DNA of 64,000 nucleotides from a virus. The stretch lies in the IMG/VR virus record IMGVR_UViG_3300037149_000100; one strand, 5' to 3'. The position numbers and the translations under genes were made by a program. Of this stretch, positions 1 to 61,093 are shown piece by piece. Numbering within the stretch: position 1 is the stretch's first letter; the number at the start of each line of letters is the position of its first letter. A model generated the notes under the pieces. The model was not told where the DNA came from. It made no database searches and saw only the letters and a program-made list of their open reading frames with translations.

Positions 1-23
1 ATAGGTAGAAAGAGGGAGCACTG

Positions 24-1037
24 TTGAGTTTCTGGACCCCGGTATCGTTGAACCAAATCGTGGGCAACGCTAGATCATTGGAGTTGCTCAGGGCAATCCT
101 GGAGAACCGAGACCGTGCTCCCTCTTCCTTTGTATTCGATGGAGCGAATGGAGTTGGAAAGAACACCATCGCTAGGTTGTTTTTCCAGGGCATGTTCCCT
201 GGTGAGAAGCCGAGGGTAGTTCAGCCTGAGTTCTTCTCACAAACATTGCAGCAAGACGATCTACAGGAGTGTCCCTGCATCGTTTGGGACCACGCAGAAC
301 GCCTCACCGTTGAGCAAGCGGATCAGCTCTGTGCTTATCTGGACAGGTCTGATGTGAAGTCGGTGTTCATCTTTCTGTGCGTCAACTACAACAAGGTGCA
401 TAAGGGTTTACGAGCCCGAGCCCTGCGGATTCCCTGTTTAAAGCCAAGTCGGGCGGATCTGACAGGTCTGCTGGGCTCCATTTGTGCTAGTCATCATTTG
501 AACTTTGAACTTGAAGCTCTAGATATGATTGCTTCTCGGACTGCTGATATCCCCTCACGGGCTATTCTCGATCTTCAGGCCATTTCTGTGTTGGGAAATA
601 TAGCGGTTGAAACGGTGCTTAAACTTCAAACCAATATTGAAGAACAGGCCATCCAGATTTTAACTCATATCGATGACCCTGACATCATGAAACTAGCTGA
701 TTCGATTAAGGATGCACACCCCATAGAGGAGTTTATTGACACTTTGTTCGAAGTGTACTCTACCGCTTTTTATGATAATACGAAATCTTTTGGGATTATT
801 GCTGAGAAACTGAGTAATTATAAAAGAGTGGGAGACATCTTCATCAAGTGGAAAGCTGCCACCTCCCTCCCCCCGTCTGCTCTTTTTATTCTCATAAAAG
901 AACTCGTGGACTCAAGAAAAATGGTGGAAACCCCTATCATTATTTCTTCCATCAAGAAGGAAATCACACGAACCCCCCCTATTCAGCCAACGGATACCTG
1001 GAAAAAGATAGTTTCTGAAATCGAGAAAAATAAGTGA
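24..1037 (+). CDS. Clamp-loader AAA+ subunit (DnaX/RFC-like)
   Basis: P-x-SL-xx-IVG N-terminus, Walker A GANGVGKN, degenerate Walker B WDHAE, RAR sensor region. Confidence 0.75.
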   Translation: MSFWTPVSLNQIVGNARSLELLRAILENRDRAPSSFVFDGANGVGKNTIARLFFQGMFPGEKPRVVQPEFFSQTLQQDDLQECPCIVWDHAERLTVEQADQLCAYLDRSDVKSVFIFLCVNYNKVHKGLRARALRIPCLKPSRADLTGLLGSICASHHLNFELEALDMIASRTADIPSRAILDLQAISVLGNIAVETVLKLQTNIEEQAIQILTHIDDPDIMKLADSIKDAHPIEEFIDTLFEVYSTAFYDNTKSFGIIAEKLSNYKRVGDIFIKWKAATSLPPSALFILIKELVDSRKMVETPIIISSIKKEITRTPPIQPTDTWKKIVSEIEKNK

Positions 1038-2131
1038 TATTACAATACGGTGATATAAAAAAGCTCAAAGGTCTCAAGTGGTATATCCTTGAGGTCAGAT
1101 CAGAGCGAACAGTGGAAAATGTGATTCGCCGGGTTGGTAAGACCATGCCCACAATTTTCAAAGATGGTGGATCCTGCGAGGTGTTCGTCCCTATTGAGGA
1201 CCGAGATCTCAACTTGTTCAGCCTGTCAACCTCTTCCTACGTATTCTTGCGCTCTGATCGAAAGAAAGAGTTGCAAAAGTTTAAAGGGGTCACGGGTGTG
1301 GTGGGGATCCTTTGTGAAGGAGAGCAGCAACGCATCGACAAGGCTTTGATGGTAGAGGATGACTACGTTCAGGAGCTAATCAAAACGACAGAAGAGAAAT
1401 TCATGAAGAGCCCAGAATCCATTCAGGTAGGCTCTTTCGTTCGTATTCTTGATGGTCTGGATAAGGGGTTCTGCGGACACGTATCTCACATAGATCGGGG
1501 TTATGCCCTGATTAGGGTAGAGCTTAAAACGAGACAGATGTTCATTGATACCCCCCTTCATAATCTCAAGGATCTGAGCTTTGTTCCCTCTCACTCCAGA
1601 GTGTTCTATTACTCTGACCTAGTGGATGAGTATGTGAAGGAGTATAGTGACGAAGCCATCATGACTCTAACCAAGGATTTGAAGTTCGTTATGGAAACGG
1701 TTGAACCTGCCCCAACGGATGAACCGGATGAAAAGAAGGTCAAGTACGGTAGGCAGAAGACTGTAACCGCTATGACAAAGAAACTGATATTCAGTGGAGT
1801 AAAGGACCCAAAAATCATTATTAAAGAGACATTGGCAGCCATTGAGTCCAGTGATATCAAAAAACCAAAGAGTGCGTTTATCTTTTACTCAATCCTTAAG
1901 CAGGCCATCATGGAGACCCTGTTCAAGGATGATACGAGAATCAAAACATACAAAGATGTGGTCAAGTATTACGGGGACTCCTACCGCTTTTCCCCAAAAA
2001 TGATCGCTGAATTGGATGAGCATTCTGTTCTCCCTCCGAAAAGTGAAACTTCAGATAAATCGAATCAACATTCCACAGTAATAAAAATTAGACTGACCAA
2101 GGAGTCAAAATGCCCAACACCACCGGAGTAG
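1034..2131 (+). CDS. NusG-family transcription factor (NGN+KOW) with C-terminal extension
   Basis: KWYILEV..E, SYVFL, VTGVVG, and KOW IQVGSFVRILDGLDKGFCG. Confidence 0.8.
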   Translation: MILQYGDIKKLKGLKWYILEVRSERTVENVIRRVGKTMPTIFKDGGSCEVFVPIEDRDLNLFSLSTSSYVFLRSDRKKELQKFKGVTGVVGILCEGEQQRIDKALMVEDDYVQELIKTTEEKFMKSPESIQVGSFVRILDGLDKGFCGHVSHIDRGYALIRVELKTRQMFIDTPLHNLKDLSFVPSHSRVFYYSDLVDEYVKEYSDEAIMTLTKDLKFVMETVEPAPTDEPDEKKVKYGRQKTVTAMTKKLIFSGVKDPKIIIKETLAAIESSDIKKPKSAFIFYSILKQAIMETLFKDDTRIKTYKDVVKYYGDSYRFSPKMIAELDEHSVLPPKSETSDKSNQHSTVIKIRLTKESKCPTPPE

Positions 2132-3195
2132 GATTAGACATCGGTACCGCTTACATCGTCTCCGCCAAGTCTGACACTGACAATAAAGTCAAAATTAGCT
2201 CCGTGCGAGATTGCTTTCTTGCTCTTCCTCTCGATCAGTCTCCCGCATTGGAGATTGCAGGCGTGGAGTTCATCGAAGGTGCAGAAGAGGTCTACGTGGT
2301 CGGTAACGATGCGATCAACCTGATTGGTGTGCTGGGTGGAGAATTGCGCCGACCCCTCAGCAAGGGCTTCATCAGCCCCAAGGAGGAAGATGGAAAGGAG
2401 ATTCTCCAACTCATTCTCCAGCAGATTCTGGGTAAACCCCAGGTTTCAGGAGAATTGGTGGCCTTCTCTGTCCCCGGTCCAATCTTTGATGTGGAGAGTG
2501 CGGTTGCACCTAAAACCAGTGGGGATACCTCCCTGGCCTTCCATACCAGCTTCTTCAAGAATCTCATCACTGACCTGGGCTACACGGCCCGTCCGGTTAA
2601 CGAAGCGGTGTCGGTGTGTTTCAACGAAACCATTTCCCCAAAGAACAAGGATGAGGTACCCCTCACCGGACTGGCCATCAGTTTTGGAGCCGGAACCACA
2701 AATCTGGCATTAATTTTCAAGTCAATTCCAGTCAAAACCTTCGCCCTGCCGTTTGGCGGAGACTACATTGATCAAATGGCAGCAAAGGCCACGGACTCTA
2801 CCCTCTCTCATATCACTCTGTTGAAGGAGCGTGGTGTGAATTTGATGACAGGAGCGGTTGTGGCCAAGGGTGAGTTTGACGACACTCAGACTGAACGTCA
2901 AGCAGAGGCTATTTCGGTAGCCTATGCGGACCTCATCACCAAGTTGGTCAACGCAACCAATAAATACTTCTCCTTTAATGAGAACAGGGTGGAAATTCCA
3001 GGCATGATTCCAGTTGTTTTGGCGGGTGGAACCACGAAGTCTCCGGAATTCATGAAGCTCTTTAACAAAATCTTCATGGAGAACTTGGATGTGCGGTTCA
3101 AGGTTTCTGAGGCACGGCTATCTGCTACCCCTCTGGATGCGACCGCTTCGGGTTGCTTGAATTACGTGAGGATTTTGAATTCCAAAAAGCAATAG
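2110..3195 (+). CDS. Actin-fold ATPase (MreB/ParM/FtsA-like)
   Basis: Phosphate-1 GLDIGT, connect-1 VNEA, phosphate-2 SFGAGTT, GGDYID, adenosine motif VLAGGTT. Confidence 0.8.
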   Translation: MPNTTGVGLDIGTAYIVSAKSDTDNKVKISSVRDCFLALPLDQSPALEIAGVEFIEGAEEVYVVGNDAINLIGVLGGELRRPLSKGFISPKEEDGKEILQLILQQILGKPQVSGELVAFSVPGPIFDVESAVAPKTSGDTSLAFHTSFFKNLITDLGYTARPVNEAVSVCFNETISPKNKDEVPLTGLAISFGAGTTNLALIFKSIPVKTFALPFGGDYIDQMAAKATDSTLSHITLLKERGVNLMTGAVVAKGEFDDTQTERQAEAISVAYADLITKLVNATNKYFSFNENRVEIPGMIPVVLAGGTTKSPEFMKLFNKIFMENLDVRFKVSEARLSATPLDATASGCLNYVRILNSKKQ

Positions 3196-3236
3196 TTGGA
3201 ATAGGGGTTTCTTAGTTGAGGCTCAAAGGAAACCCT

Positions 3237-4112
3237 ATGTCAGATAACAAACCAACCCCCCCATTGACTCCCATTGCAGCCCCTGCCTATGTTCCAGTGG
3301 CTCAACCACGATTTCAAATGCCTACCATCAATCTGAGTGGTGGGCATATTCTTATGCTTATTCTAGCCGTTGGGCTTACATGGTGGTTGACTAAACGTAA
3401 TCTGCCCACTCAGGCAATCGCACAGACTCAGATGGCAGAGTTCAAGGCTCTTTCAGATAAGGTGGACCAGCTTGCGGGGCATGTGGTTACCCAGTCTGAT
3501 TTAGAAAGTAAGGTCAAGGCTCAAATGGGGCCAGCTTTCGTTGCTGCGGTAAAAAAACAAGATGGAACACTTACAAATCTTGCCACAGCGGTAGGGCTGA
3601 TTCAGGGGCAACTATCCGCCATGGACCACACCACTGTTCAAAAAACTCCAATTGGAGGATTTAGCACAGTTCTAAGTCAGGATAGGGGCAAGGCCCCAGC
3701 GTTGACTAGTCTCTCACTTAGTTATGATCCCGCCTCTTCAGGTTTATCTAGTCAGTGGAACAACCACACCGAAAAATTTACAGCAAATTATGGGGAATGG
3801 AGAACCAGTGCGGACGGGGCCAGATCGGCTATTTCCTTGTCCAGAGACGTTTATGACGGCTCCACAAAAATTGGAACTGAACAAATTCCATTGGTGAACG
3901 GGGACGCTTATTTTAGCCAATCTGATATTGCTAGAACTGTCCCATTACCAAAATATACGTTTATGATTGGGTCTAGTTATGACCTCAGTACTGGGAAACC
4001 CAGGGTGAGTGGGCTGCTGGGACGGCAAATCACAGATGCATCTGGTGTAGCAACTGGTTTTGTTAATAACTCCTGGACCATCCTTTACACATATAGGTTC
4101 GGAGCAAAATAA
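3237..4112 (+). CDS. Membrane-anchored hypothetical protein
   Basis: RBS AAGGA; N-terminal TM segment, coiled coil, beta-rich C-terminus ending YTYRFGAK. Confidence 0.6.
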   Translation: MSDNKPTPPLTPIAAPAYVPVAQPRFQMPTINLSGGHILMLILAVGLTWWLTKRNLPTQAIAQTQMAEFKALSDKVDQLAGHVVTQSDLESKVKAQMGPAFVAAVKKQDGTLTNLATAVGLIQGQLSAMDHTTVQKTPIGGFSTVLSQDRGKAPALTSLSLSYDPASSGLSSQWNNHTEKFTANYGEWRTSADGARSAISLSRDVYDGSTKIGTEQIPLVNGDAYFSQSDIARTVPLPKYTFMIGSSYDLSTGKPRVSGLLGRQITDASGVATGFVNNSWTILYTYRFGAK

Positions 4113-31909: not shown

Positions 31910-33046
31910 ATGCTTGAAGTTCAGAAGTTCCTTAAGAACGGCGGAACTCTTGAGATGCTCAAGGCAGACTACGGCATTAGTGCTCGTGTGAACGAGAGGC
32001 TGGGGGTAACTTGCCTCAATTACTCTCAAATCATGTCTCCAATGGGTCAGAAGATCGTCAGAGAGTGTCGTGCATTGGTGCTGGAGAGCACCACCTGGGA
32101 GGTGAAGTCATGCTCCTTCGAACGCTTCTTCAACTTCGGTGAGGGGCACATCCCCAAGGACTTTGACTGGGACAACTTCCAGACGCTGGAGAAGCTGGAT
32201 GGGTCGCTGATTCACTTCTGGTTCCATGACACTGAAGGCTGGCAGTGCGGCACCCGTTCGGTTCCGGATGCGGATACCGGCATGGATGACTCCGGTCTCA
32301 CATTCAAGCAGTTGGTCATCCAGACCATCAATGAGATGGGATCGTGTTGGGCTCACTGGACCGACAGCCTCATTCCAGGCTACACTTTTACCTTTGAATT
32401 GACCTCGCCAGAAAATATGATTGTGTGTGATTACCGGGGTCAGCGTAAGCTCACTCTGATTGGTATCCGCAACCTCGAAACCCTCAAGGAGGTGGATGTC
32501 CACCAGTGGCATCAGCCAGGGTATATTGCCCCCTGGCCGGTCGTGAAGCGTTACCCTGGCTTCACCCTGGATGCGGTGCAAGAAGCTGTACAGAAGCGTG
32601 ACCCGCATGACTTCGAGGGTTATGTGCTGGTGGATAAGAACTTTAACAGGGTGAAGATCAAGTCCTCCGCTTACGTGTTCATGTCCAGTCGTCGTGATTC
32701 CCTTGGGAAGTCGAACAAGGCACGGATCGAACTGATCCAAAATGATGCGGTGGATGATGTGCTGTCTAGCCTGCCTGAGTTCGTTCAGGGGAAAATCCTG
32801 GGTCTCCAACGGAAGCTCAAGACCCTGGTCCAGACCTGTGATGCCCTCTATCAGGCTGTAAAGGATGAGGATACCGATAAGGACTTCGCCCTGAAGGTCC
32901 AGCACGGGGGCTACAGCAGTGTCATGTTCGCTCTGCGGCGTGGCAAGGCTGTGGATTCGTGGGAGCATTTCAAGCGGATGAGCCCCAAGCGAGTATTAGA
33001 GTATCTGGATGAAGAAGACGACGAAGAGGAGACGGTATGCGAATAA
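31910..33046 (+). CDS. RNA ligase (T4 Rnl1-like)
   Basis: RECRALV, RFFN.GE, EKLDGS, FELTSP.N.IV, EGYV, RVKIKS. Confidence 0.85.
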   Translation: MLEVQKFLKNGGTLEMLKADYGISARVNERLGVTCLNYSQIMSPMGQKIVRECRALVLESTTWEVKSCSFERFFNFGEGHIPKDFDWDNFQTLEKLDGSLIHFWFHDTEGWQCGTRSVPDADTGMDDSGLTFKQLVIQTINEMGSCWAHWTDSLIPGYTFTFELTSPENMIVCDYRGQRKLTLIGIRNLETLKEVDVHQWHQPGYIAPWPVVKRYPGFTLDAVQEAVQKRDPHDFEGYVLVDKNFNRVKIKSSAYVFMSSRRDSLGKSNKARIELIQNDAVDDVLSSLPEFVQGKILGLQRKLKTLVQTCDALYQAVKDEDTDKDFALKVQHGGYSSVMFALRRGKAVDSWEHFKRMSPKRVLEYLDEEDDEEETVCE

Positions 33047-33928
33047 TTGGTGGGGAGCCCCTCCCAAACGGGACGAAGGTTAGCTTCTGCCTATCCGATG
33101 TGGTGACTGGCACCGGTATGATTCGGGGTATCCACACGATGCCTCAGCCGGTCCTGGGCTACGGCTACATCGTGGAGTGGGACTTTCTGTCCTGTGCGCC
33201 TTACGCATACCCCTGCATCTCCGTCTTCGATAGCGGCATCACGGTGATGGAATGATTGAAGATGGAGAGCGAAGACCCGGCGTGTTCTACAAGGATGGCA
33301 GGCCCCATCATTACGAATGCCAGGACTGCAAGAAGCCTGACCCTGTGCATTTCATGGTCAAGGACAGCATATGGGAAGAGGCGGGTATGGGTAAGGGTAT
33401 TATTTGCCCCGAATGCTTCGAGATCAGACTGGGACGGAGGCTGGGGATTCAGGATTTCAAGGATGTCCCATCCAACGACATGTTCTTCTATGGGTACCAG
33501 ATGGCCAAATCGCTCTATTACAATCCCCCGTTCATCGCCATCGCCACTTCTATCAAGCGATCAACCCACCCAGGAGAGGAAGTCCTGGAAACTGGGCTGA
33601 CCTTTCCCGATTACCCCTCATGCGAATTCATCGAAGCACATTTCACGATCCTCGACTCCGAGGACAAAAAGGAAAAAGAATGAAATATCTGTTTGTTTGC
33701 CTCGCCTTGGTTGCCCTGACTGCCTGTACGGATGCCCAGAGGGCCAAATATACCTCCATCGGTTCCGCTCACCACATCCAGCTTTACTCTGGGGGTAAGC
33801 TGATAGGTGAGTGGGACAGCACCGGAGCCGTCACCAATGAGGGCCAGTCTGATGGATTTGTCTTTGTGGACAAGAAAACCCGTGTGAACACGGAAATAGC
33901 CGGAGAGGTCATCATCACCCAGGAGTAA
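33037..33928 (+). other. Three small genes (33037-33255; 33252-33683 Zn finger; 33680-33928 lipoprotein with LTAC)
   Basis: Overlapping starts and stops; CxxC motifs; lipobox. Confidence 0.55.
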
Positions 33929-33968
33929 ACCGGGACTATCTGTTTCTCAACTGAAGGCAGGGATAGAA

Positions 33969-36803
33969 ATGAAGGAAGGTGCGTGGATTAATGGTAAGAC
34001 GGGGAAATTTGCCTGGATTACCGAACATGCGAGTTGGGTGAAAGACCCTGAGAATGCCCGATCGATTGGCGTTCCTGAAAGCGTAATCGAGAAAATCCAG
34101 TCTCTCCGTTCAGACTTCAACGGCAAGGGTCGTGAAGAGATCCTCGCTACCGTCATGCAGGCCGGGTTCATTCGGATGCGGGGGCATGGCTCATTCTGGA
34201 CGTTTGAGTTTACCATGCCCTCAGAAGAAGCGTTGTGGGCTTGCATGTCCTTCCTACAGGACTTCGCTGGCCCATTCACTCAATGCCGGTTTAACAACCT
34301 GAGGACCGGTGAGACCATAGACACCCTCTTTCAAGAATTCGAGAAGACGATGCAGCAAGATCCTACACAGATTTTGAGGATTGCGAAGGTTGTGACCTAT
34401 CCCCGAATGGCTTCGTTTTTGGAGCATGTGGGAGATGAGGTCAAGGTTGCCTCCGGCTACCCCAGATTGATGCAAATTATGAAAGGGTTGATACCCACCG
34501 TGCATACGTTTGGCATCATGTCTGTGGATAACCCTCAAAACCAAGCCCTCTCCGAAGAGGAGAATCAAAAGCGAAGAAATCAATTTAAGGCTGACCTCAA
34601 ACGTGGGTATTATGGCTACGTTCAGCACAATGGCATGTATGACCGCCCCGAAAAGGCGTTCTTTATCATGAATGTCAGATTGTCTGAACTGACCCAATGG
34701 TGCGGAGAGACTCAGTTCGACCAGGAGAGCTACATTTATGGTCAAGTGAACCACGACGAACATGAAGTCGTAATGACGCTGTATTATGGTGCAACACCGG
34801 GTCCACAGCGAAAGGTTGTGTTGAGAGTGGAGAATGGGGTTGAAAACTACTACTCAGAGTACAAGGGACGTAAGTTCGTCATCCCCTTCTTTGATGAAAC
34901 TGAAGCTCCTGAATCCGAAGAGTCCAATCTCCCCACTGGGGTCCCATTTGATAAGAATGATGTGGATACTCCGAAGAACGCTTCACAGTTAAACCTCATT
35001 CTAGCCAATGCAGAAGGTCTTCGAAAGGATGCGCTGGGCCTAACAGTCGGAATGGGCAATTGGAACAAACGAGGAATGCTTCTCCAGGCTGTGAGGCAGT
35101 TGGAGCCTAAGCCTAGGCCCAAAGTAGGGATGGACTCTAAGTATGAGCTTGCCCTAATTCTCAAGTATGTGCGAATGAATCTTAGCAGTTTCCGGAGTAT
35201 GCTGACCCGACCGGATGCGGCTAAAGCAATTCATGACAAACTTAAGAAGGAATGCCCTAGGGGTGAGTTGGCTGATCTGATGGCCCCGATAATCATGGAA
35301 CGGGCTCAAGGTGTAATTCAGGAGACCAAACTCAAACAAGCTCTGGAGGGAATGTTTAATTCCCAGCCGGGAATGAACGAGGAGTTGGATTACAAACGGA
35401 CCCTGGAGGATGAGAAGGGAGGGGCCACGAACGTCATGAAGGCCAGCCTGAAGACCGCTGTGCTGATCCCCCACACCCTGTCTAGTTTCAAAGATGATCA
35501 GACGAATCAGAAGGCAGCAGAACTGTTTTCCGATTACTCGGCCAGATTCGACACCGGTAAGGCCATCGCTCTGACCCGCAGGGATCTGATGCGATCAGAC
35601 TATGACATGGCCACAGCGGCTCCTAGGCCCCCTAGAGTGCCCTCCACCATCCCCCCTTCAGCCCCACCGAAACCAAAGAAGCCGGAGCCGGGGGCACAGC
35701 TTTTCAGTGATGAGGAGTTACGTTTTCCCACCGGTATGATTCAACAAGCCGCTCCCTCCCCCCTACGAGTGAAAGTGACTTCCCCCCAGGTGGATCCCAA
35801 GTTCTTCCGGTTCTGGATGGAGCAATTATACAATTCTGGTGCGTACCGACCCCTCACGCAAGGAGCCGTGCAGCAGGGCATCAGGGCGTCAGATGTGTTG
35901 GAATTGCCATTCTACAACGTCAAGATCAAGGATGTGGCACAGATTGGCCAGAACCTCCCAGACTACGATTTCCTCATTCAACGAGTGGGCAACACCGGGA
36001 AGGTGCTGACTCGAACGGCTCATAAGGTAGCAGCCTTGTTCCATGATCGTGGTTGGATTTTGCCAACTGGAGAGTTCTTACCCGTTAAGGGTGCGGTTAA
36101 TCTGGATATTCGTGAGTTTAATCAAGATGAAGAACATCATGATATGATTGCCGAACGCTACTTTGAAGGTGGGACCGAAGAAGCATATGATAATGAGTGG
36201 ATACGTATCGGCGTGTATGGTACGGAAGGTTATGCGGATCTGGGTGGCTGTAACGATAAGCAGTTTAACACAATGTGGAGTCATTTCAACGAAACAAAGC
36301 CTAAGTTCATTATTTTCGGCTATTTGGTTGAGGGTCGGTTAGACCTTGAGGACTTCTTGAAATGCAAAAATCTTGCAGGTATAGAGAGAGCGGTTAGACG
36401 CACTTACAGAACCGCCTCTGGGCAGCCTACTATGGGTTTCAACGTCAACGACTCTGCCGCTCCATTCACCGATTGGATACTTCGGGGTGAGAAGGAAATT
36501 GAGACTAGAAACTCCGACTCACTCAGACCTCACATTGGAGAACGAGTCGGTATCATCCGCACAGGGGTTGGCCCCGCTACCCTGGTTGGTTATTGCACCC
36601 TAGGTGAGCCCATTATCTATCGGGACAATCGAGACTTCCGTCAGGATCAGTCGCAGCATATGGTTCCAGAGGGTCCGATGTGGGACTTGTTCCCCGGAAT
36701 GATCAAGTATGGTTATCCTATTCTGGATGTGGAGCCGTGTGAACCCAAAGCAATTACCTCTCAAGGCCGAGTGTGGAGACGACTAGCAAGAATTGAAAAT
36801 TGA
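33969..36803 (+). CDS. 944-aa modular protein with DUF3293-like and C-terminal ASCH-like domains
   Basis: FGIMSVDNP...N..R....DL...QESY; ILRGEKEIETR...GERVGI. Confidence 0.6.
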   Translation: MKEGAWINGKTGKFAWITEHASWVKDPENARSIGVPESVIEKIQSLRSDFNGKGREEILATVMQAGFIRMRGHGSFWTFEFTMPSEEALWACMSFLQDFAGPFTQCRFNNLRTGETIDTLFQEFEKTMQQDPTQILRIAKVVTYPRMASFLEHVGDEVKVASGYPRLMQIMKGLIPTVHTFGIMSVDNPQNQALSEEENQKRRNQFKADLKRGYYGYVQHNGMYDRPEKAFFIMNVRLSELTQWCGETQFDQESYIYGQVNHDEHEVVMTLYYGATPGPQRKVVLRVENGVENYYSEYKGRKFVIPFFDETEAPESEESNLPTGVPFDKNDVDTPKNASQLNLILANAEGLRKDALGLTVGMGNWNKRGMLLQAVRQLEPKPRPKVGMDSKYELALILKYVRMNLSSFRSMLTRPDAAKAIHDKLKKECPRGELADLMAPIIMERAQGVIQETKLKQALEGMFNSQPGMNEELDYKRTLEDEKGGATNVMKASLKTAVLIPHTLSSFKDDQTNQKAAELFSDYSARFDTGKAIALTRRDLMRSDYDMATAAPRPPRVPSTIPPSAPPKPKKPEPGAQLFSDEELRFPTGMIQQAAPSPLRVKVTSPQVDPKFFRFWMEQLYNSGAYRPLTQGAVQQGIRASDVLELPFYNVKIKDVAQIGQNLPDYDFLIQRVGNTGKVLTRTAHKVAALFHDRGWILPTGEFLPVKGAVNLDIREFNQDEEHHDMIAERYFEGGTEEAYDNEWIRIGVYGTEGYADLGGCNDKQFNTMWSHFNETKPKFIIFGYLVEGRLDLEDFLKCKNLAGIERAVRRTYRTASGQPTMGFNVNDSAAPFTDWILRGEKEIETRNSDSLRPHIGERVGIIRTGVGPATLVGYCTLGEPIIYRDNRDFRQDQSQHMVPEGPMWDLFPGMIKYGYPILDVEPCEPKAITSQGRVWRRLARIEN

Positions 36804-36805
36804 TC

Positions 36806-36834
36806 TTGACGGGCCGGTGCCGATTGAGTATTAT
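36806..36834 (+). promoter_or_regulatory. Sigma70-like promoter heading the cassette array
   Basis: TTGACG-17 nt-TATTAT; includes the GAGTATTA motif. Confidence 0.7.
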
Positions 36835-36929
36835 AGATAAGAAGGTTCCGTTGTTTTTACAGAAACGGAACCTTTGACTGAGCAGCCGTGCTGCTTCTGT
36901 CCATTCCTTCACCCCTTCCAGGAGCGCCC

Positions 36930-37211
36930 ATGTGCGAATACCAGGGACACGAATTTGGAGCCCGCTACCCCGACTCCATGTGCATTGACGGCTATCTCTG
37001 GGACGCAGACAACTGCGACGACCAGGGCAACCTCTACGAGCCCATGGACGCCATCCCCTGCCCGATGTGCAGCCCGAAAGCCGCCATCGGCTGGTGGACG
37101 GAACGGTTCGATAGCCCCTCCAGGCGCAAAGCCCGCAAGGCTGCCCGTTTCCTGGTCGCGGACATTCGCCGGAATCGCGGCGTCGAAACCCTCAGCAACC
37201 CTGCCGAATAG
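36930..37211 (+). CDS. Cassette gene, Cys-rich
   Basis: RBS GGAG; C...CIDGYLWD.D...PCPMC. Confidence 0.65.
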   Translation: MCEYQGHEFGARYPDSMCIDGYLWDADNCDDQGNLYEPMDAIPCPMCSPKAAIGWWTERFDSPSRRKARKAARFLVADIRRNRGVETLSNPAE

Positions 37212-37250
37212 GCGAATGTCCAGGCGCAGCCCTGGACCAAGGAGAAAATC

Positions 37251-37418
37251 ATGACCCCTGAACAGTTTGAAAAAGCCCTGGAGGATGCCGTCAAGGGCGG
37301 GAGGGTAACCGTCACCATCAGCGAAAGCTGCCCCGAGGATGGCTGCAACGGGACACTCCACCGCATCTCCGAGAACCTCCAATGCTGTGACCAGTGCAAC
37401 ACCGTTTTCGGCGCCTAG
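37251..37418 (+). CDS. Cassette gene, 55-aa Zn ribbon
   Basis: RBS AAGGAG; CPEDGC...CDQC. Confidence 0.6.
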   Translation: MTPEQFEKALEDAVKGGRVTVTISESCPEDGCNGTLHRISENLQCCDQCNTVFGA

Positions 37419-37447
37419 CCACGCATGTCCAGAAAGGATAACCAACC

Positions 37448-37660
37448 ATGGACCCATTCACCCTCGATGACCTACTGAAAATGCACCCGCATCAGGTCGT
37501 GGAAATTCTGAACCGCTACCGGGAGGCGTTGGAGGAAGTGAAAGCCTCCGTCTGCGGCGAAGCGGTGTCCAAGTGGGGCATCGACCCCCAGACCACAAAA
37601 TCCCGCATCCGCATCGCCAATACCTGCGATGTCGCCCTTCTCAACCTGCCGAAAGGCTGA
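37448..37660 (+). CDS. Cassette gene
   Basis: RBS AAGGA. Confidence 0.6.
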   Translation: MDPFTLDDLLKMHPHQVVEILNRYREALEEVKASVCGEAVSKWGIDPQTTKSRIRIANTCDVALLNLPKG

Positions 37661-37679
37661 TGTCCATGAGGACAAACCC

Positions 37680-37877
37680 ATGACTAAGAAGGATGGACTG
37701 CCATCCGTGGCAAAAACCAAGTTCGAATTCGGATTCCGGCTGATCGGTATCCCCAAGATGTGCGCCAACTGCGCCCACCGGGATTACGCCTGCTGTGGAT
37801 TGAGCCCTCAGGACTTCACCATCGGCAAGCTCGACAACCACGTTTGCGACCGATGGAAGCGCAGCCACCTGAATTAA
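37680..37877 (+). CDS. Cassette gene, Cys-rich
   Basis: RBS GAGG; CANCAH...C...CDRW. Confidence 0.6.
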   Translation: MTKKDGLPSVAKTKFEFGFRLIGIPKMCANCAHRDYACCGLSPQDFTIGKLDNHVCDRWKRSHLN

Positions 37878-37901
37878 CCATCCTGTCCAGAAAGGTGAAC
37901 C

Positions 37902-38141
37902 ATGCCCAAGTGGCCGCCCTGTCCCACTCCAGTGTCTCCGCCCAGCCGGGGAGTCATCATCAAAACCTGCACCCACTACGTCATCGAGCGAAAAACGGCA
38001 GGACCAGAATGGGAGCCCTGGGCTTTCCCAAAGAATGACCGGCTGAACGCGCTGGAGACGCTGGAGTGGTGCCGCAAGGAACAACCCGGAGGCACCTTTC
38101 GGTTGATCTTCGAAACCCGTGAACACATCGCAGCCGAATGA
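37902..38141 (+). CDS. Cassette gene
   Basis: RBS AAGGTG. Confidence 0.55.
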   Translation: MPKWPPCPTPVSPPSRGVIIKTCTHYVIERKTAGPEWEPWAFPKNDRLNALETLEWCRKEQPGGTFRLIFETREHIAAE

Positions 38142-38359
38142 GGCTGTCTAGGATCCCTATGTCACAAACATGCAAACCAATCCGCCGATGGAAGTTGAAA
38201 GCTATGCGGCACTTGGGGAAAACCAACCCCCAATTAACCCGTTCTGGGGCGAAGCGGGTTTGCCCCTGGCAGAACCTATCCCCCCGTAACCTTCGCCTGT
38301 ATCGATAACCGTTGCCCAGGTTGCGGGCTGTAGTTGTCCACTATTCGCCCGGAGGGCAG

Positions 38360-38560
38360 ATGAAAACCGTCATCGTTGAAGGCAAACGATACCCCGTCAT
38401 TGAGGACCTGGGGTTCCAGCATGGGCGATGCTGCACCGCCGTTGAAGCCCAGACGCCAGATGGTCCCAGGATCGCCACCAAGGGCTCCCTCATCGGGTCG
38501 AAGTGGCAGTGGGCTGGACCCGCCCCCGTCTTGCCTCGCGGTCCCATTGCGGGGCAGTAG
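38360..38560 (+). CDS. Cassette gene
   Basis: RBS GGAGG. Confidence 0.6.
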   Translation: MKTVIVEGKRYPVIEDLGFQHGRCCTAVEAQTPDGPRIATKGSLIGSKWQWAGPAPVLPRGPIAGQ

Positions 38561-38834
38561 GCGCATGTCCATCTGGAGGAACCATGACCAGCAAGGAAAT
38601 GCTCAAAGCCACGTTGCCCAAGGACTGCATCTGGGAGAACATCGCGCCGCTTGGCCGTATTCCAAATTGGAGGATCATCCCAAAGCCGAAAGGGTGGGGT
38701 GAGTGATGGGCGCTTTCGACGATTCCTACCACATGACCTGGACCAAGGCAGATCGCCGCCGGATCAAGCGGGACCGCGCCAAGTCGCCCTTCGCATGGGT
38801 GCAGGCCCTCCCGCTGCCCTGGGAACGGTGAGCC

Positions 38835-39332
38835 ATGAACAGAGACGAGCTTGAGGCAAGTATTGCAGCGAGAAATCCGGAAGCATGGCGTCCATCTCAA
38901 ATATCATCCAAAGTGTCTCAGGAAATGGACGAGTTAATCCGGTGCCGCGCCATTCAGGGAATGGACGAGTTGATGTACTGCCGAGCCATCCTGTATCATG
39001 CAGGGGACTTCTCCACCAGCATCCATGGCGGCATTGAAGCCCTAGTGGCAGAGCGGAATGCCCTCCGTGCCAAAGTGCAGAGCCAGCGTGACCGGATCAA
39101 TGACCTTGAATCTTGGCGTCCAACCCCCCACCCCGCCGGGACGCCCTTGAAGCCGATGCCTGATCCGAAGCGCAGCGAGTGGCAAGCCGACCCCCTCAAA
39201 TGGATGTTCGCCATGTCGGAATGGGGCGAATCTGCCAGCGCCAGGATTGCAGACCTGGAAGCGATCTTGGCAACCAGCGTAATGTGCCCCAAGTGCGCCG
39301 AAGTCATCCTGCCCCACCAACAGATCCGTTGA
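38835..39332 (+). CDS. Cassette gene, coiled coil with CPKC
   Basis: Open frame ending just before the last TGTCCA. Confidence 0.55.
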   Translation: MNRDELEASIAARNPEAWRPSQISSKVSQEMDELIRCRAIQGMDELMYCRAILYHAGDFSTSIHGGIEALVAERNALRAKVQSQRDRINDLESWRPTPHPAGTPLKPMPDPKRSEWQADPLKWMFAMSEWGESASARIADLEAILATSVMCPKCAEVILPHQQIR

Positions 39333-39490
39333 TCCTGTCCAGGATCCCCCTGGACTTAACCACTCCCGAATCATCAGTTCGAAAAAAAAGAAAAAATAAA
39401 GCTATACAGAATTCCCAACTTCCGAGTATCATCATTGTAGGGCAGGAATGAAAAACAACCTTCCGGTCCTAATCATGGAGTCAGCCTTCA

Positions 39491-39645
39491 ATGTTCAATC
39501 TATTCGCCATTGCCAATCATACCCCACAGGGGTGGGCAAAGGTTTATAGTTTTTCCGCTGATCGCCTCCCCATGACTTAACACTCACGCAAATCCGAATC
39601 GGAACCCCCGTGAGTCCTTCCAAGAACCACGGGGGTTCGGCTTTA
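39491..39645 (+). promoter_or_regulatory. 29-aa leader ORF plus GC-rich hairpin before the tRNA array
   Basis: RBS GGAG, ORF 39491-39580, stem GAACCCCCGTG/CACGGGGGTTC. Confidence 0.45.
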
Positions 39646-39794
39646 TGGAGCCAACCCGAAAATCCTTGACAATTTCATAAAGCAAATTTAGTAACCCACC
39701 CTCCGCTTTAGGGCGAGGGGTGAAGGGTTCGGGGAGGGCTCCAGAAACTCCTCACTTGAAAAAATGGGCTACACACCTCTTAATTGAGGTGTGT

Positions 39795-40424
39795 ATGTTC
39801 AAGTCATGTATTCATTGTTCGAAAGAGTTCCAGGCCAAGGACAACAGAAAGAAGTTCTGCTCTCAGTCCTGTTCAGCTTCTCACGCGCAATTAGGGAAGC
39901 CGAGCCACAACCAAAAGAAGCCACGAAACCTGTGCTACTGTGGTAGCCCAATCGAAAACCCAGTCAGCGTGTTCTGTAGTGACCAGTGCCGCCAATCCCA
40001 AAAGATGGGAGGTATCACCGAATGGGTACAGGGCGGTCCAGCCCCGCTAGGGCCAGAATCAATCACCCGCTGGGTTAAGAAGTTGCGAGGAAGTGCCTGT
40101 GAAGAATGCGGGTGGGACCAACAAAACCCGGTATCAGGTAGGAGCCAGACCCAGGTGGACCACATAGATGGGGACAGCACCAACCTGATGTACACCAACC
40201 TCAAAGTGCTCTGCCCCAACTGTCACTCCATGACCCCCACATTCGGGAGCTTAAACCGAGGAAAAGGGACAAGGACTAAACGGTTCTCCAACCTCGTGCT
40301 ACTTCCACGCATCTGCCCCACTTGTGGTGACTCGTTCACTCCAATCAGCAAAAGGCACACAAGCTGTTCTCGTAAGTGCCGGGGTAAGGCAACGTATCAA
40401 AAACAAATATCTCGGAGTAGTTAA
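39795..40424 (+). CDS. HNH endonuclease with Zn-finger repeats
   Basis: CEECG...QVDHIDGD..N....NL..LCPNCH; FCS..C repeats. Confidence 0.85.
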   Translation: MFKSCIHCSKEFQAKDNRKKFCSQSCSASHAQLGKPSHNQKKPRNLCYCGSPIENPVSVFCSDQCRQSQKMGGITEWVQGGPAPLGPESITRWVKKLRGSACEECGWDQQNPVSGRSQTQVDHIDGDSTNLMYTNLKVLCPNCHSMTPTFGSLNRGKGTRTKRFSNLVLLPRICPTCGDSFTPISKRHTSCSRKCRGKATYQKQISRSS

Positions 40425-40484
40425 ACGGTAGAACCCAGTCCTGACATGGCTGTGACGGCAGTTCAACTCTGCCCTCTGAGACCA
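40411..40484 (+). tRNA. tRNA-Val(GAC)
   Basis: Cloverleaf, loop CTGACAT, ACCA end. Confidence 0.8.
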
Positions 40485-40494
40485 TCAAAAATTT

Positions 40495-40557
40495 TAGACA
40501 CTAACAGCAACCCAAAATTTCACCTTTGGCTGTGAAAAGCAAAATGTGTCGTGTCTA
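40495..40557 (+). ncRNA. AGAC-TAACAGCAA family element, short copy
   Basis: TAGACAC/GTGTCTA terminal stem followed by TAACAGCAA. Confidence 0.55.
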
Positions 40558-58537: not shown

Positions 58538-58703
58538 GTTTCGATGAGGTAAAAATTATTCTCGGTTTTTTCTTCTCGATTCGAATCAACCCTGAGTATT
58601 ATGTAAACGGAACATAACATAGGCTGGCTCGGTGCCTTCGAACCGGACACTCCATGGACATCCTGTCCAACAGATCCGAACGGATCAACTCAAGGGAGAT
58701 TAA

Positions 58704-61019: not shown

Positions 61020-61093
61020 GCAGCCGTAATTCATCGGTAGAATGGTTTGCTCTAACCAGACTTAGGCGGGTTCGACTCCTGTCGGCTGCACCA
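61020..61093 (+). tRNA. Amber-suppressor tRNA (anticodon CTA)
   Basis: GCAGCCG/CGGCTGC acceptor, ATTC/GAAT D stem, GTTTG-CTCTAAC-CAGAC, TTCGACT T loop, ACCA. Confidence 0.85.

Follow-up and report, generated by a model that had tools for sequence, protein, structure and literature searches.

A hexamer, TGTCCA, marks the boundaries of exchangeable genes in a phage locus that we analysed within a 64,000-nucleotide (nt) stretch of viral DNA (the window). The window is part of the 106-kb IMG/VR virus contig IMGVR_UViG_3300037149_000100, which is about 37% complete according to CheckV and, because it carries 29 transfer RNA (tRNA) genes, was assigned to a giant phage. Ten small open reading frames (ORFs; g1 to g10, 40–165 amino acids) occupy one strand from 36930 to 39332, behind a leader with a promoter, and are divided into units by the hexamer. 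We found that the locus is a phage gene-cassette array in which peat populations insert, delete, duplicate, and reorder whole units, and that the recombination making new adjacencies falls at the hexamer, either within it or at its edge. We assign a probability of roughly 0.5 to the explanation that these events arise by a sequence-targeted break or strand exchange at the hexamer, completed by general phage recombination functions. Sequencing runs bearing the locus belong to about 14 studies and are of peat, permafrost, and, for one metagenome, freshwater origin.

Rearranged forms of the locus were collected from metagenome contigs, which were retrieved by a search with the leader hairpin and by look-ups of exact proteins, and from Logan contigs of three DNA runs mapped to the locus (Logan contigs drop rare forms). 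A comparison between strains of this kind had been proposed in the initial annotation of the stretch, and its outcome agreed with what that annotation expected: between near-identical strains, units had been acquired, deleted, duplicated, or reordered, the breakpoints lying at the hexamer. One contig found by the hairpin search (L019) matches, as its reverse complement, positions 32860–36903 of the window with 99.93% identity and the sequence from 39335 onward with 99.8% identity, the flanks extending for 4 kb on one side and 0.5 kb on the other. Between two hexamers, where the window has ten genes, it contains a single 144-bp unit coding for 39 amino acids. In another contig (L018), the leader is followed by three different units and then by g8, which is 100% identical and starts at 38566, while in L012 an identical leader is directly joined to g8. 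Four different first units were thus observed behind one leader: g1 in the window, a two-ORF unit (113 and 117 amino acids) in L018, the 39-amino-acid unit in L019, and g8 in L012.

The same pattern was seen inside the array. In the Logan contigs of the three DNA runs, breaks occur at hexamers and the alternative neighbours appear as loose ends; in run X5, a joint of 36903 to 39335 is present alongside the long form. One Logan contig contains g7, 360 nt of other sequence, and then g1, i.e. a reordering. The g7 unit is 99.6–100% identical in L154, L155, L156, and L160, with neighbours that differ on both sides, and in the first three of these contigs the alignment is bounded exactly by 38335 and 38571. 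The different neighbours found for g7 number at least four upstream and at least four downstream. In L160 (positions 1–1223), g7 is present twice, in the order g7, a 56-amino-acid unit, g4, g5, g6, g7, and the pair looks like a duplicated unit, as in integron arrays. The g4–g5 pair was found behind another unit elsewhere, and g4 follows a different unit in L155, L160, and loose ends of runs X3 and X5. Copies of g1 with 99.1–99.4% identity stand behind other units in L154, L156, and L158. The exact g2 protein is encoded in L151, L162, and L163, and g3 is followed by one of three alternatives, namely g4 in the window, a unit coding for 114 amino acids in L162, and another unit in L163. The variant TGTCTA, which precedes g6 in the window, is the junction ahead of g7 in L154 and L155. 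Six different upstream contexts were found for the junction at 38566. The three genes that follow it, g8, g9, and g10, travel together in G002 (a small phage, see below), G003, and L012 with 94–95% nucleotide identity; L018 extends no further than g8 and the first part of g9. Some arrangements recurred across independent samples and assemblers (L154 with L156, L155 with L160). Overall, more than 20 independent alignment boundaries lie 0–8 nt from the edge of a hexamer, most of them at 3 nt or less, and the 5- and 8-nt overhangs are chance matches.

The features of the array are listed in Table 1. Much of the initial description of the locus held. The promoter at its head, described there as consensus-like, has the best-scoring promoter match within 36500–39800, and it is followed by the long inverted repeat reported at the same place, exact copies of which were found only in L012, L018, and L019. 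The leader as a whole is identical in L012, 99% identical in L018, and 99.9% identical in L019. The small genes are indeed ten in number, on the same strand and rich in guanine and cytosine (GC): the GC content is 0.59 and 0.58 at 37–39 kb, as against 0.49 and 0.52 in the flanking bins. The idea of promoterless cassettes stacked behind one promoter was also borne out, for, in a promoter and terminator scan, individual units lack both elements and the one head promoter serves the array. Junction sites never score as promoters; weaker 9/12 matches lie off the junctions, and the one other plus-strand match in 36898–39341 is such a 9/12 site within g10. The sole plus-strand terminator-like match (38086–38102) is located within g5, with none at junction sites.

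On the plus strand of the array, TGTCCA occurs nine times (36898, 37217, 37426, 37566, 37661, 37884, 38335, 38566, and 39336) rather than the eight times first counted, in addition to the one TGTCTA that had been noted (38145) and a TGCCCA (38314), both of these variants serving as junctions. One copy, at 37566, lies within the g3 ORF and not at a junction, and the earlier claim that ORFs contain none was therefore wrong by one. The reported distance of 0–7 nt from stop codon to hexamer was measured at seven window sites, while at 38335 the hexamer is 26 nt from the stop codon of g6. The 106-kb contig has 23 plus-strand copies, nine in the 2.4-kb array and 14 elsewhere; the expectation for the array is 0.33 (Poisson P = 9.5e-11). 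Non-coding sequence makes up 10.1% of the array and contains eight of the nine copies (P = 8.6e-8). In the whole window, both strands taken together, there are 47 copies, compared with 43.9 in shuffled sequences, i.e. no enrichment. The enrichment of TGTCCA is strictly local and strand-specific.

Table 1. Coordinates of the array and of the gene downstream of it (positions in the window; aa, amino acids)
Feature	Position	Strand	Details
Sigma-70-type head promoter	36806..36834	+	TTGACG, 17-nt spacer, TATTAT; 10/12 consensus matches
Leader inverted repeat	36842..36874	+	11-bp arms, 11-nt loop; at predicted 5' end of transcript
First junction (leader/first unit; attI-equivalent position)	36898..36903	+	alignments end at 36903-36906
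Unit 1, g1	36904..37216	+	ORF 36930-37211, 93 aa
Junction continuing as small hairpin	37217..37222	+	TGTCCA
Unit 2, g2	37223..37425	+	ORF 37251-37418, 55 aa
Junction	37426..37431	+	Logan contigs break here and run into different sequence
Unit 3, g3	37432..37660	+	ORF 37448-37660, 70 aa; holds the non-junction TGTCCA 37566
Junction, immediately 3' of g3 stop codon	37661..37666	+	alignments end at 37666-37667
Unit 4, g4	37667..37883	+	ORF 37680-37877, 65 aa
Junction	37884..37889	+	TGTCCA
Unit 5, g5	37890..38144	+	ORF 37902-38141, 79 aa
Variant junction TGTCTA	38145..38150	+	in runs X3 and X10, also found ahead of g6, with a different unit before it
Unit 6, g6	38151..38313	+	ORF 38159-38308, 49 aa, or 39-aa alternative 38170-38289; coding status uncertain
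Variant site TGCCCA with 15-nt remnant ending in stop codon	38314..38334	+	contigs of runs X3 and X10 diverge after 38320, entering a different unit
Junction	38335..38340	+	alignments of L154, L155, and L156 start exactly here
Unit 7, g7	38341..38565	+	ORF 38360-38560, 66 aa
Junction	38566..38571	+	L008-L012 and L018 align from 38565 or 38566 onward
Unit 8, g8/g9/g10	38572..39335	+	ORFs 38584-38706, 38706-38831, 38835-39332; translationally coupled, no hexamer between them
Terminal junction, then small hairpin	39336..39341	+	L019 rejoins the window at 39335
HNH endonuclease gene downstream of array	39720..40424	+	matches to PF01844 and phrog_1271

The segment 38314–38334 is probably a collapsed unit. 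Two alleles of g10 exist, a long one in the window (165 amino acids) and a short one (101 amino acids) in G002, G003, L012, and runs X3 and X5; they differ by a 199-bp segment (39069–39267) that is replaced by 7 nt in the short form, an event that is not at a hexamer. Among the ten ORFs, a protein-family match was obtained for g1 only (phrog_20542, function unknown). A nucleotide search of INPHARED with the array produced no match, and an Rfam scan of 36500–40500 revealed one tRNA and no other RNA family. RNA-library contigs were found for portions of the array and run through two of its hexamers, but data of this form neither reveal RNA ends nor establish transcription.

The platform is not confined to the giant phage and is common to small GC-rich phages. 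Using g10 and recurrent junction heads as probes, we gathered 13 arrays with 71 junctions (68 non-redundant sites were used for column composition), 56 de-duplicated units, and 80 ORFs. Most of these arrays are in 36–44-kb phage contigs with a GC content of 59–64%, as compared with about 50% for the giant phage; one of the small phages, G002, is 90% complete, and another, G005, has 127-bp terminal repeats. The nucleotide similarity of the window to the small phages is limited to 36898–39355, and outside the array the giant and small phages are linked by five weak protein matches with 23–37% identity (e.g. helicase and DNA polymerase). Judged by sequence similarity, units are shared by phages that are otherwise unrelated. 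Homologous units in other arrays bear the same hexamer on both sides, which was the second check that the initial annotation had called for. In the giant-phage contig (G000), G002, and G005, intergenic hexamers are confined to the array, and in G002 and G005 the hexamer is absent from the adjoining junctions between conserved genes of the same strand.

All units have one orientation, and 45 of the 56 consist of a single ORF, which typically fills 80–97% of the unit. Only two plus-strand hexamers lie off a junction in 24.7 kb of arrays. Most array ORFs (57 of 80) are singletons within the set. Cargo that could be identified in related arrays comprises Dam-like and C5 DNA methyltransferases and an RNA ligase; the cargo appears to be accessory, and the methyltransferases and RNA ligase suggest host-takeover or counter-defence functions.

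Several searches mark the limits of this distribution. A generic probe from the leader of the small phages hit 112 loci, nearly all by chance, and yielded one new array (L136). Ralstonia phage RpY1, the nearest cultured relative of the small phages (its DNA polymerase is 60% identical), has no such array. Arrays in bacterial genomes were considered and rejected, as ten matches to a 19-nt probe look like chance, with no clustering of hexamers nearby. The contig that joins the giant-phage leader to g8 (L012; IMG/VR 3300050011_000326, positions 1–4092) is itself of mixed character: its left 1.1 kb is giant-phage-like, with 80% identity to 36030–36904, and the remainder is 99.6% identical to G002, helicase gene included. 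It is either a true hybrid or the product of an assembly walking through the common g8–g10 unit.

Comparison of the 71 junctions showed that the hexamer is invariant save for rare TGTCTA and TGCCCA sites, which are still junctions. The view that units are delimited by TGTCCA only was too narrow, since neighbouring positions are biased and longer modules recur. At 53 of the 68 non-redundant sites, position -5 is a G, which belongs to a TGA or TAG stop codon. The other biased positions are -4 (A or C), -3 (any base except C), -1 (mostly C), +9 (any base except G), +10 (G), and +11 (C). At the level of the consensus, these preferences form a weak dyad (GMDCC on the left, GGHGC on the right) around the asymmetric 6-nt centre. 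The distance from the stop codon to the hexamer has a median of 4 nt (interquartile range 3–6), and that from the hexamer to the next start codon a median of 26 nt (range 5–141; 5–57 nt in all units but one). The hexamer contains no Shine-Dalgarno sequence. Tail modules of 12–25 nt and head modules in the 5' untranslated region (one of 48 bp, some with small hairpins) recur beside unrelated ORFs. The 20-nt head of the 37217 junction, for example, precedes unrelated ORFs in G001, G002, G005, L021, and L024, with a one-mismatch copy at L038:132, and the head of the terminal junction is found at the end of the G003 array as well. Across the 13 arrays, the types of left flank and right flank are freely combined at the hexamer, and many junction partners share 6–7 nt only (e.g. 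leader/g8 versus g7/g8).

Folding just 3' of the hexamer is modestly above background (P = 0.002). The three small hairpins that had been annotated at sites in the window are all present; over the whole set, hairpins follow the hexamer at some sites only, and none is then followed by a T run. The statement that the array has no attC sites was upheld, both by the core, which is TGTCCA and not GTTRRRY, and by the folding analysis. An attC-like fold was rejected: complementarity across the hexamer at individual sites is no higher than column composition predicts, and pairing between tail and head is no stabler than with shuffled partners, either in the array form or in a hypothetical circle form. 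A role of the hexamer as a promoter was rejected as well, as its distance from the start codon is short in every unit except one and the sites have no promoter score.

Genes for recombination functions are found next to several arrays. In G005, an Erf annealing protein, a YqaJ exonuclease, and a RecA-dependent, Ref-like HNH nuclease are encoded directly upstream of the array, and the Ref-like gene is upstream of the arrays in L021 and L136 too. G002 has a junction resolvase upstream and an exonuclease and a gp2.5-like annealing protein downstream. In the window, the HNH gene downstream of the array is its neighbour, and we make no claim that it is a member of the system; as a candidate counterpart of the Ref-like nuclease of G005 it was rejected, the two sequences being unrelated.

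The explanation that we favour can be summarized as follows. A single promoter and 5' hairpin drive a row of promoterless, mostly single-gene units, each of which opens with TGTCCA and runs to the next TGTCCA, a median of 4 nt past its stop codon. The hexamer would serve as the invariant core of a short site for recombination (about 16 nt), whose flanks are degenerate and weakly dyad-symmetric. A sequence-specific activity, phage- or host-encoded, would aim a DNA break or strand exchange at this core, and ordinary phage functions (single-strand annealing protein, exonuclease, Ref-like HNH nuclease, junction resolvase) would finish the event. We favour targeting because junction partners share 6–7 nt only, the same point is reused precisely, and the motif marks the variable units alone. 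Such a length is far below what annealing proteins are known to use efficiently, and is too short for annealing-based recombination to reuse one point repeatedly without targeting. More tentatively, and at somewhat less than even odds, the array may represent a site-specific phage gene-capture system that does the job of an integron with other parts: a site of about 16 nt with an asymmetric TGTCCA core and a phage or host enzyme, moving single-gene counter-defence or host-takeover units between unrelated phages, the giant one included, of the same peat hosts.

A number of observations weigh against targeting of the hexamer. Three rearrangement boundaries lie off it: the end of the common 48-bp 5' untranslated module shared by g2 and a G002 unit, the start of a common 11-nt tail module at 38134, and the truncation inside g1 in L038. 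They indicate that general recombination via short common modules is also at work. The dyad is a property of the consensus only, and stop codons and ribosome-binding sites are partial confounders of it. Outside the array, the five weak protein matches provided no candidate for a site-reading protein common to the giant and small phages. The joint expected of an excised circle, in which a unit's end meets its own beginning, was not seen in the contigs of the three DNA runs, which drop rare forms. Finally, the initial annotation had reported no recombinase in the window and had proposed a search for a tyrosine recombinase. Tyrosine and serine recombinases, IS200/IS605 and IS110 transposases, and topoisomerase IB (PF00589, PF00239, PF01797, PF01548, and PF01028) gave no match in the 106-kb contig, whose genome is about 37% complete, or in G001, G002, G003, and G005; in the control for PF00589, the family was detected in 14 of 14 genomes. 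There is room, at the same time, for a host-encoded recombinase. The gene-capture platform that had been proposed is accordingly upheld in that units move with breakpoints at the hexamer, while its "site-specific" character is something we infer, no recombinase having been found and no circles seen in contigs.

Some of the same observations fit a different account, in which the hexamer junction is primarily an intercistronic expression element (an RNA-processing or RNA-stabilising signal or a stoperator-type binding site) and the sole portable homology, so that shuffling is a by-product of general or relaxed recombination (Erf with YqaJ, gp2.5 with exonuclease, RecA with Ref) and no site enzyme exists. 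We regard it as the main rival, possible though less likely than targeting of the hexamer. The location of recombination genes directly beside the arrays in G005, G002, L021, and L136, the heads and tails shared by unrelated ORFs together with crossovers at the edges of some modules, and the modestly stronger folding just after the hexamer are all in its favour. There is also precedent: in T4-type phages, the elements termed PeSLs (promoter-early stem-loops) mediate such shuffling (PMC2839356, PMC4122927), and the stoperator of mycobacteriophage L5, GGTGGMTGTCAAG, is asymmetric, lies near stop codons in one orientation, and contains TGTCAA (PMC3029335). The account has difficulty with the many junction partners that share the hexamer alone, and absence of the motif from adjacent conserved-gene junctions of the same operons would be odd for a general expression signal. 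It also has to contend with units that lack a promoter or terminator of their own, with RNA-library contigs that span two hexamers (weak evidence), and with the fact that no repressor was identified.

A purely regulatory or translational hexamer, associated with starts or stops, with variation arising from illegitimate recombination and selection for intact genes, is improbable. The motif does always lie between a stop codon and the next ribosome-binding site, along the direction of transcription, and in this it is similar to the start-associated sequences of Cluster K mycobacteriophages (PMC3203893). Under selection for intact genes, however, any point in spacers of 25–50 nt would be permitted, and more than 20 boundaries are at hexamer edges as against three elsewhere; the hexamer is, moreover, tied to the preceding stop codon and not to the next start, and has no Shine-Dalgarno sequence. 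Chimeric contigs joined via the repeated junction are the least credible explanation, for although L012 may be chimeric further along (giant phage on the left, G002 on the right), most junctions share 6–24 nt, below assembler k-mers (31 for Logan), so junction-spanning k-mers must exist in reads, the same arrangements recur in independent samples and pipelines, and L019 has flanks of 4 kb and 0.5 kb at 99.8–99.9% identity.

Several further features of the contig were recorded. Between the array and the HNH gene, there is a promoter-like site at 39403–39432, the depth of an RNA-library contig is 78 from 39449 onward as against 2–4 across the array, and a GC-rich hairpin lies near 39604–39640; the region 39403–39700, which has no Rfam match, may encode an abundant small RNA. 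The ORF of 944 amino acids upstream of the array (33969–36803) is composite: residues 1–378 have relatives with 52% identity in six IMG/VR contigs (L001–L006), the last 260 or so residues are common only to L012 and L019, and a sub-threshold match to DUF3293 was the only family match. A perfect palindrome, TGGACA-tcc-TGTCCA, is present at 58655–58669 in the 5' leader of a second GC-rich island (58.7–60.7 kb, up to 61% GC), in or beside which two of three ORFs match outer-membrane families (OmpA family and outer-membrane protein beta-barrel); this island contains no array, and no similarity links it to the small phages. At 61020–61093, away from the main tRNA cluster, ARAGORN predicted a tRNA with a CTA anticodon (amber-suppressor type). 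Outside the window, the contig carries a CRISPR array (C1:90-850) with 11 identical 36-nt repeats and ten spacers, of which spacers 6 and 8 are 92% alike across 26 nt. None of the ten spacers matched the fetched loci, small phages included, and spacers 5 and 10, the two compared with IMG/VR, had no exact match there.

Accessory regions of phage genomes are a source of new anti-defence and host-takeover genes, and their fast turnover is largely unexplained. Here, turnover is visible at the resolution of single units, in strains whose flanks differ by less than 0.1% and whose arrays differ by ten genes, and the same units are exchanged between a giant phage with a GC content of about 50% and 36–44-kb phages in which it is 59–64%. 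Should an enzyme read the hexamer, the array would represent a new recombination system with a very small site, a possible tool, and an integron-like system outside bacteria. Should there be no such enzyme, an element much shorter than a PeSL can organise modular exchange across unrelated phages. Either way, the hexamer provides a simple handle for retrieving many mobile phage genes from metagenomes.

A literature search for the hexamer together with phage and intergenic terms revealed no description of TGTCCA as a phage junction, and the array was therefore compared with systems that resemble it in part. The pdif modules of Acinetobacter plasmids are bounded by 28-nt XerC/XerD sites (11-6-11) with conserved Xer-binding arms in alternating orientation. 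As in the array, short sites with a 6-bp centre bound gene modules, and the element has no recombinase of its own, a host enzyme being used in the case of pdif. The arms of the array sites, however, are not dif-like (CC and GG next to the core and about five biased positions on each side), and every site is in direct-repeat orientation. Stoperators of Cluster A mycobacteriophages, 24–34 per genome and distributed genome-wide, bind a known repressor (L5 consensus GGTGGMTGTCAAG; PMC3029335). They too are asymmetric short sites in short gaps near stop codons, oriented along transcription, and L5 has TGTCAA after A or C; the hexamer sites differ in being found only in the variable array, and stoperators have not been reported as boundaries of mobile units. 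The start-associated sequence of Cluster K, which is 13 nt long, contains a Shine-Dalgarno core, and lies 3–7 nt from the start codon (PMC3203893), is likewise a repeated, asymmetric motif; it lies, with a single orientation, upstream of numerous non-structural genes that belong to unrelated families. The hexamer lacks such a core, and its position follows that of the stop codon before it and not that of the start codon.

PeSLs are composites of a strong promoter and a terminator stem-loop that act via homologous recombination (Arbiol et al. 2010, PMC2839356; Comeau et al. 2014, PMC4122927). The likeness is considerable: a short repeated intergenic element lies at points of insertion, deletion, and replacement between close relatives, the genes affected are small, non-essential orphans, and no dedicated recombinase is known. 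In contrast to PeSLs, the junction sites described here have neither a sigma-70-like promoter nor a terminator stem-loop, their invariant part is 6 nt only, and the site is common to unrelated phage backbones. Clusters of attC sites without an integrase (CALINs) have been described in phage genomes, and contain true attC sites (Qi et al. 2023, PMC9892861). Integrons differ from the array in three respects: no IntI or other tyrosine recombinase was found here, an invariant hexamer with degenerate flanks takes the place of a folded 55–140-nt attC with a GTTRRRY core, and there is no pairing between the two sides of a junction. They resemble it in their head promoter, in promoterless, mostly single-gene units of one orientation, in discrete units that are identical in different neighbourhoods and have precise boundaries, and in diverse, mostly orphan genes whose ORFs end at or just before the site. 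While failing both defining tests of an integron (IntI and attC), the array is integron-like in architecture and behaviour.

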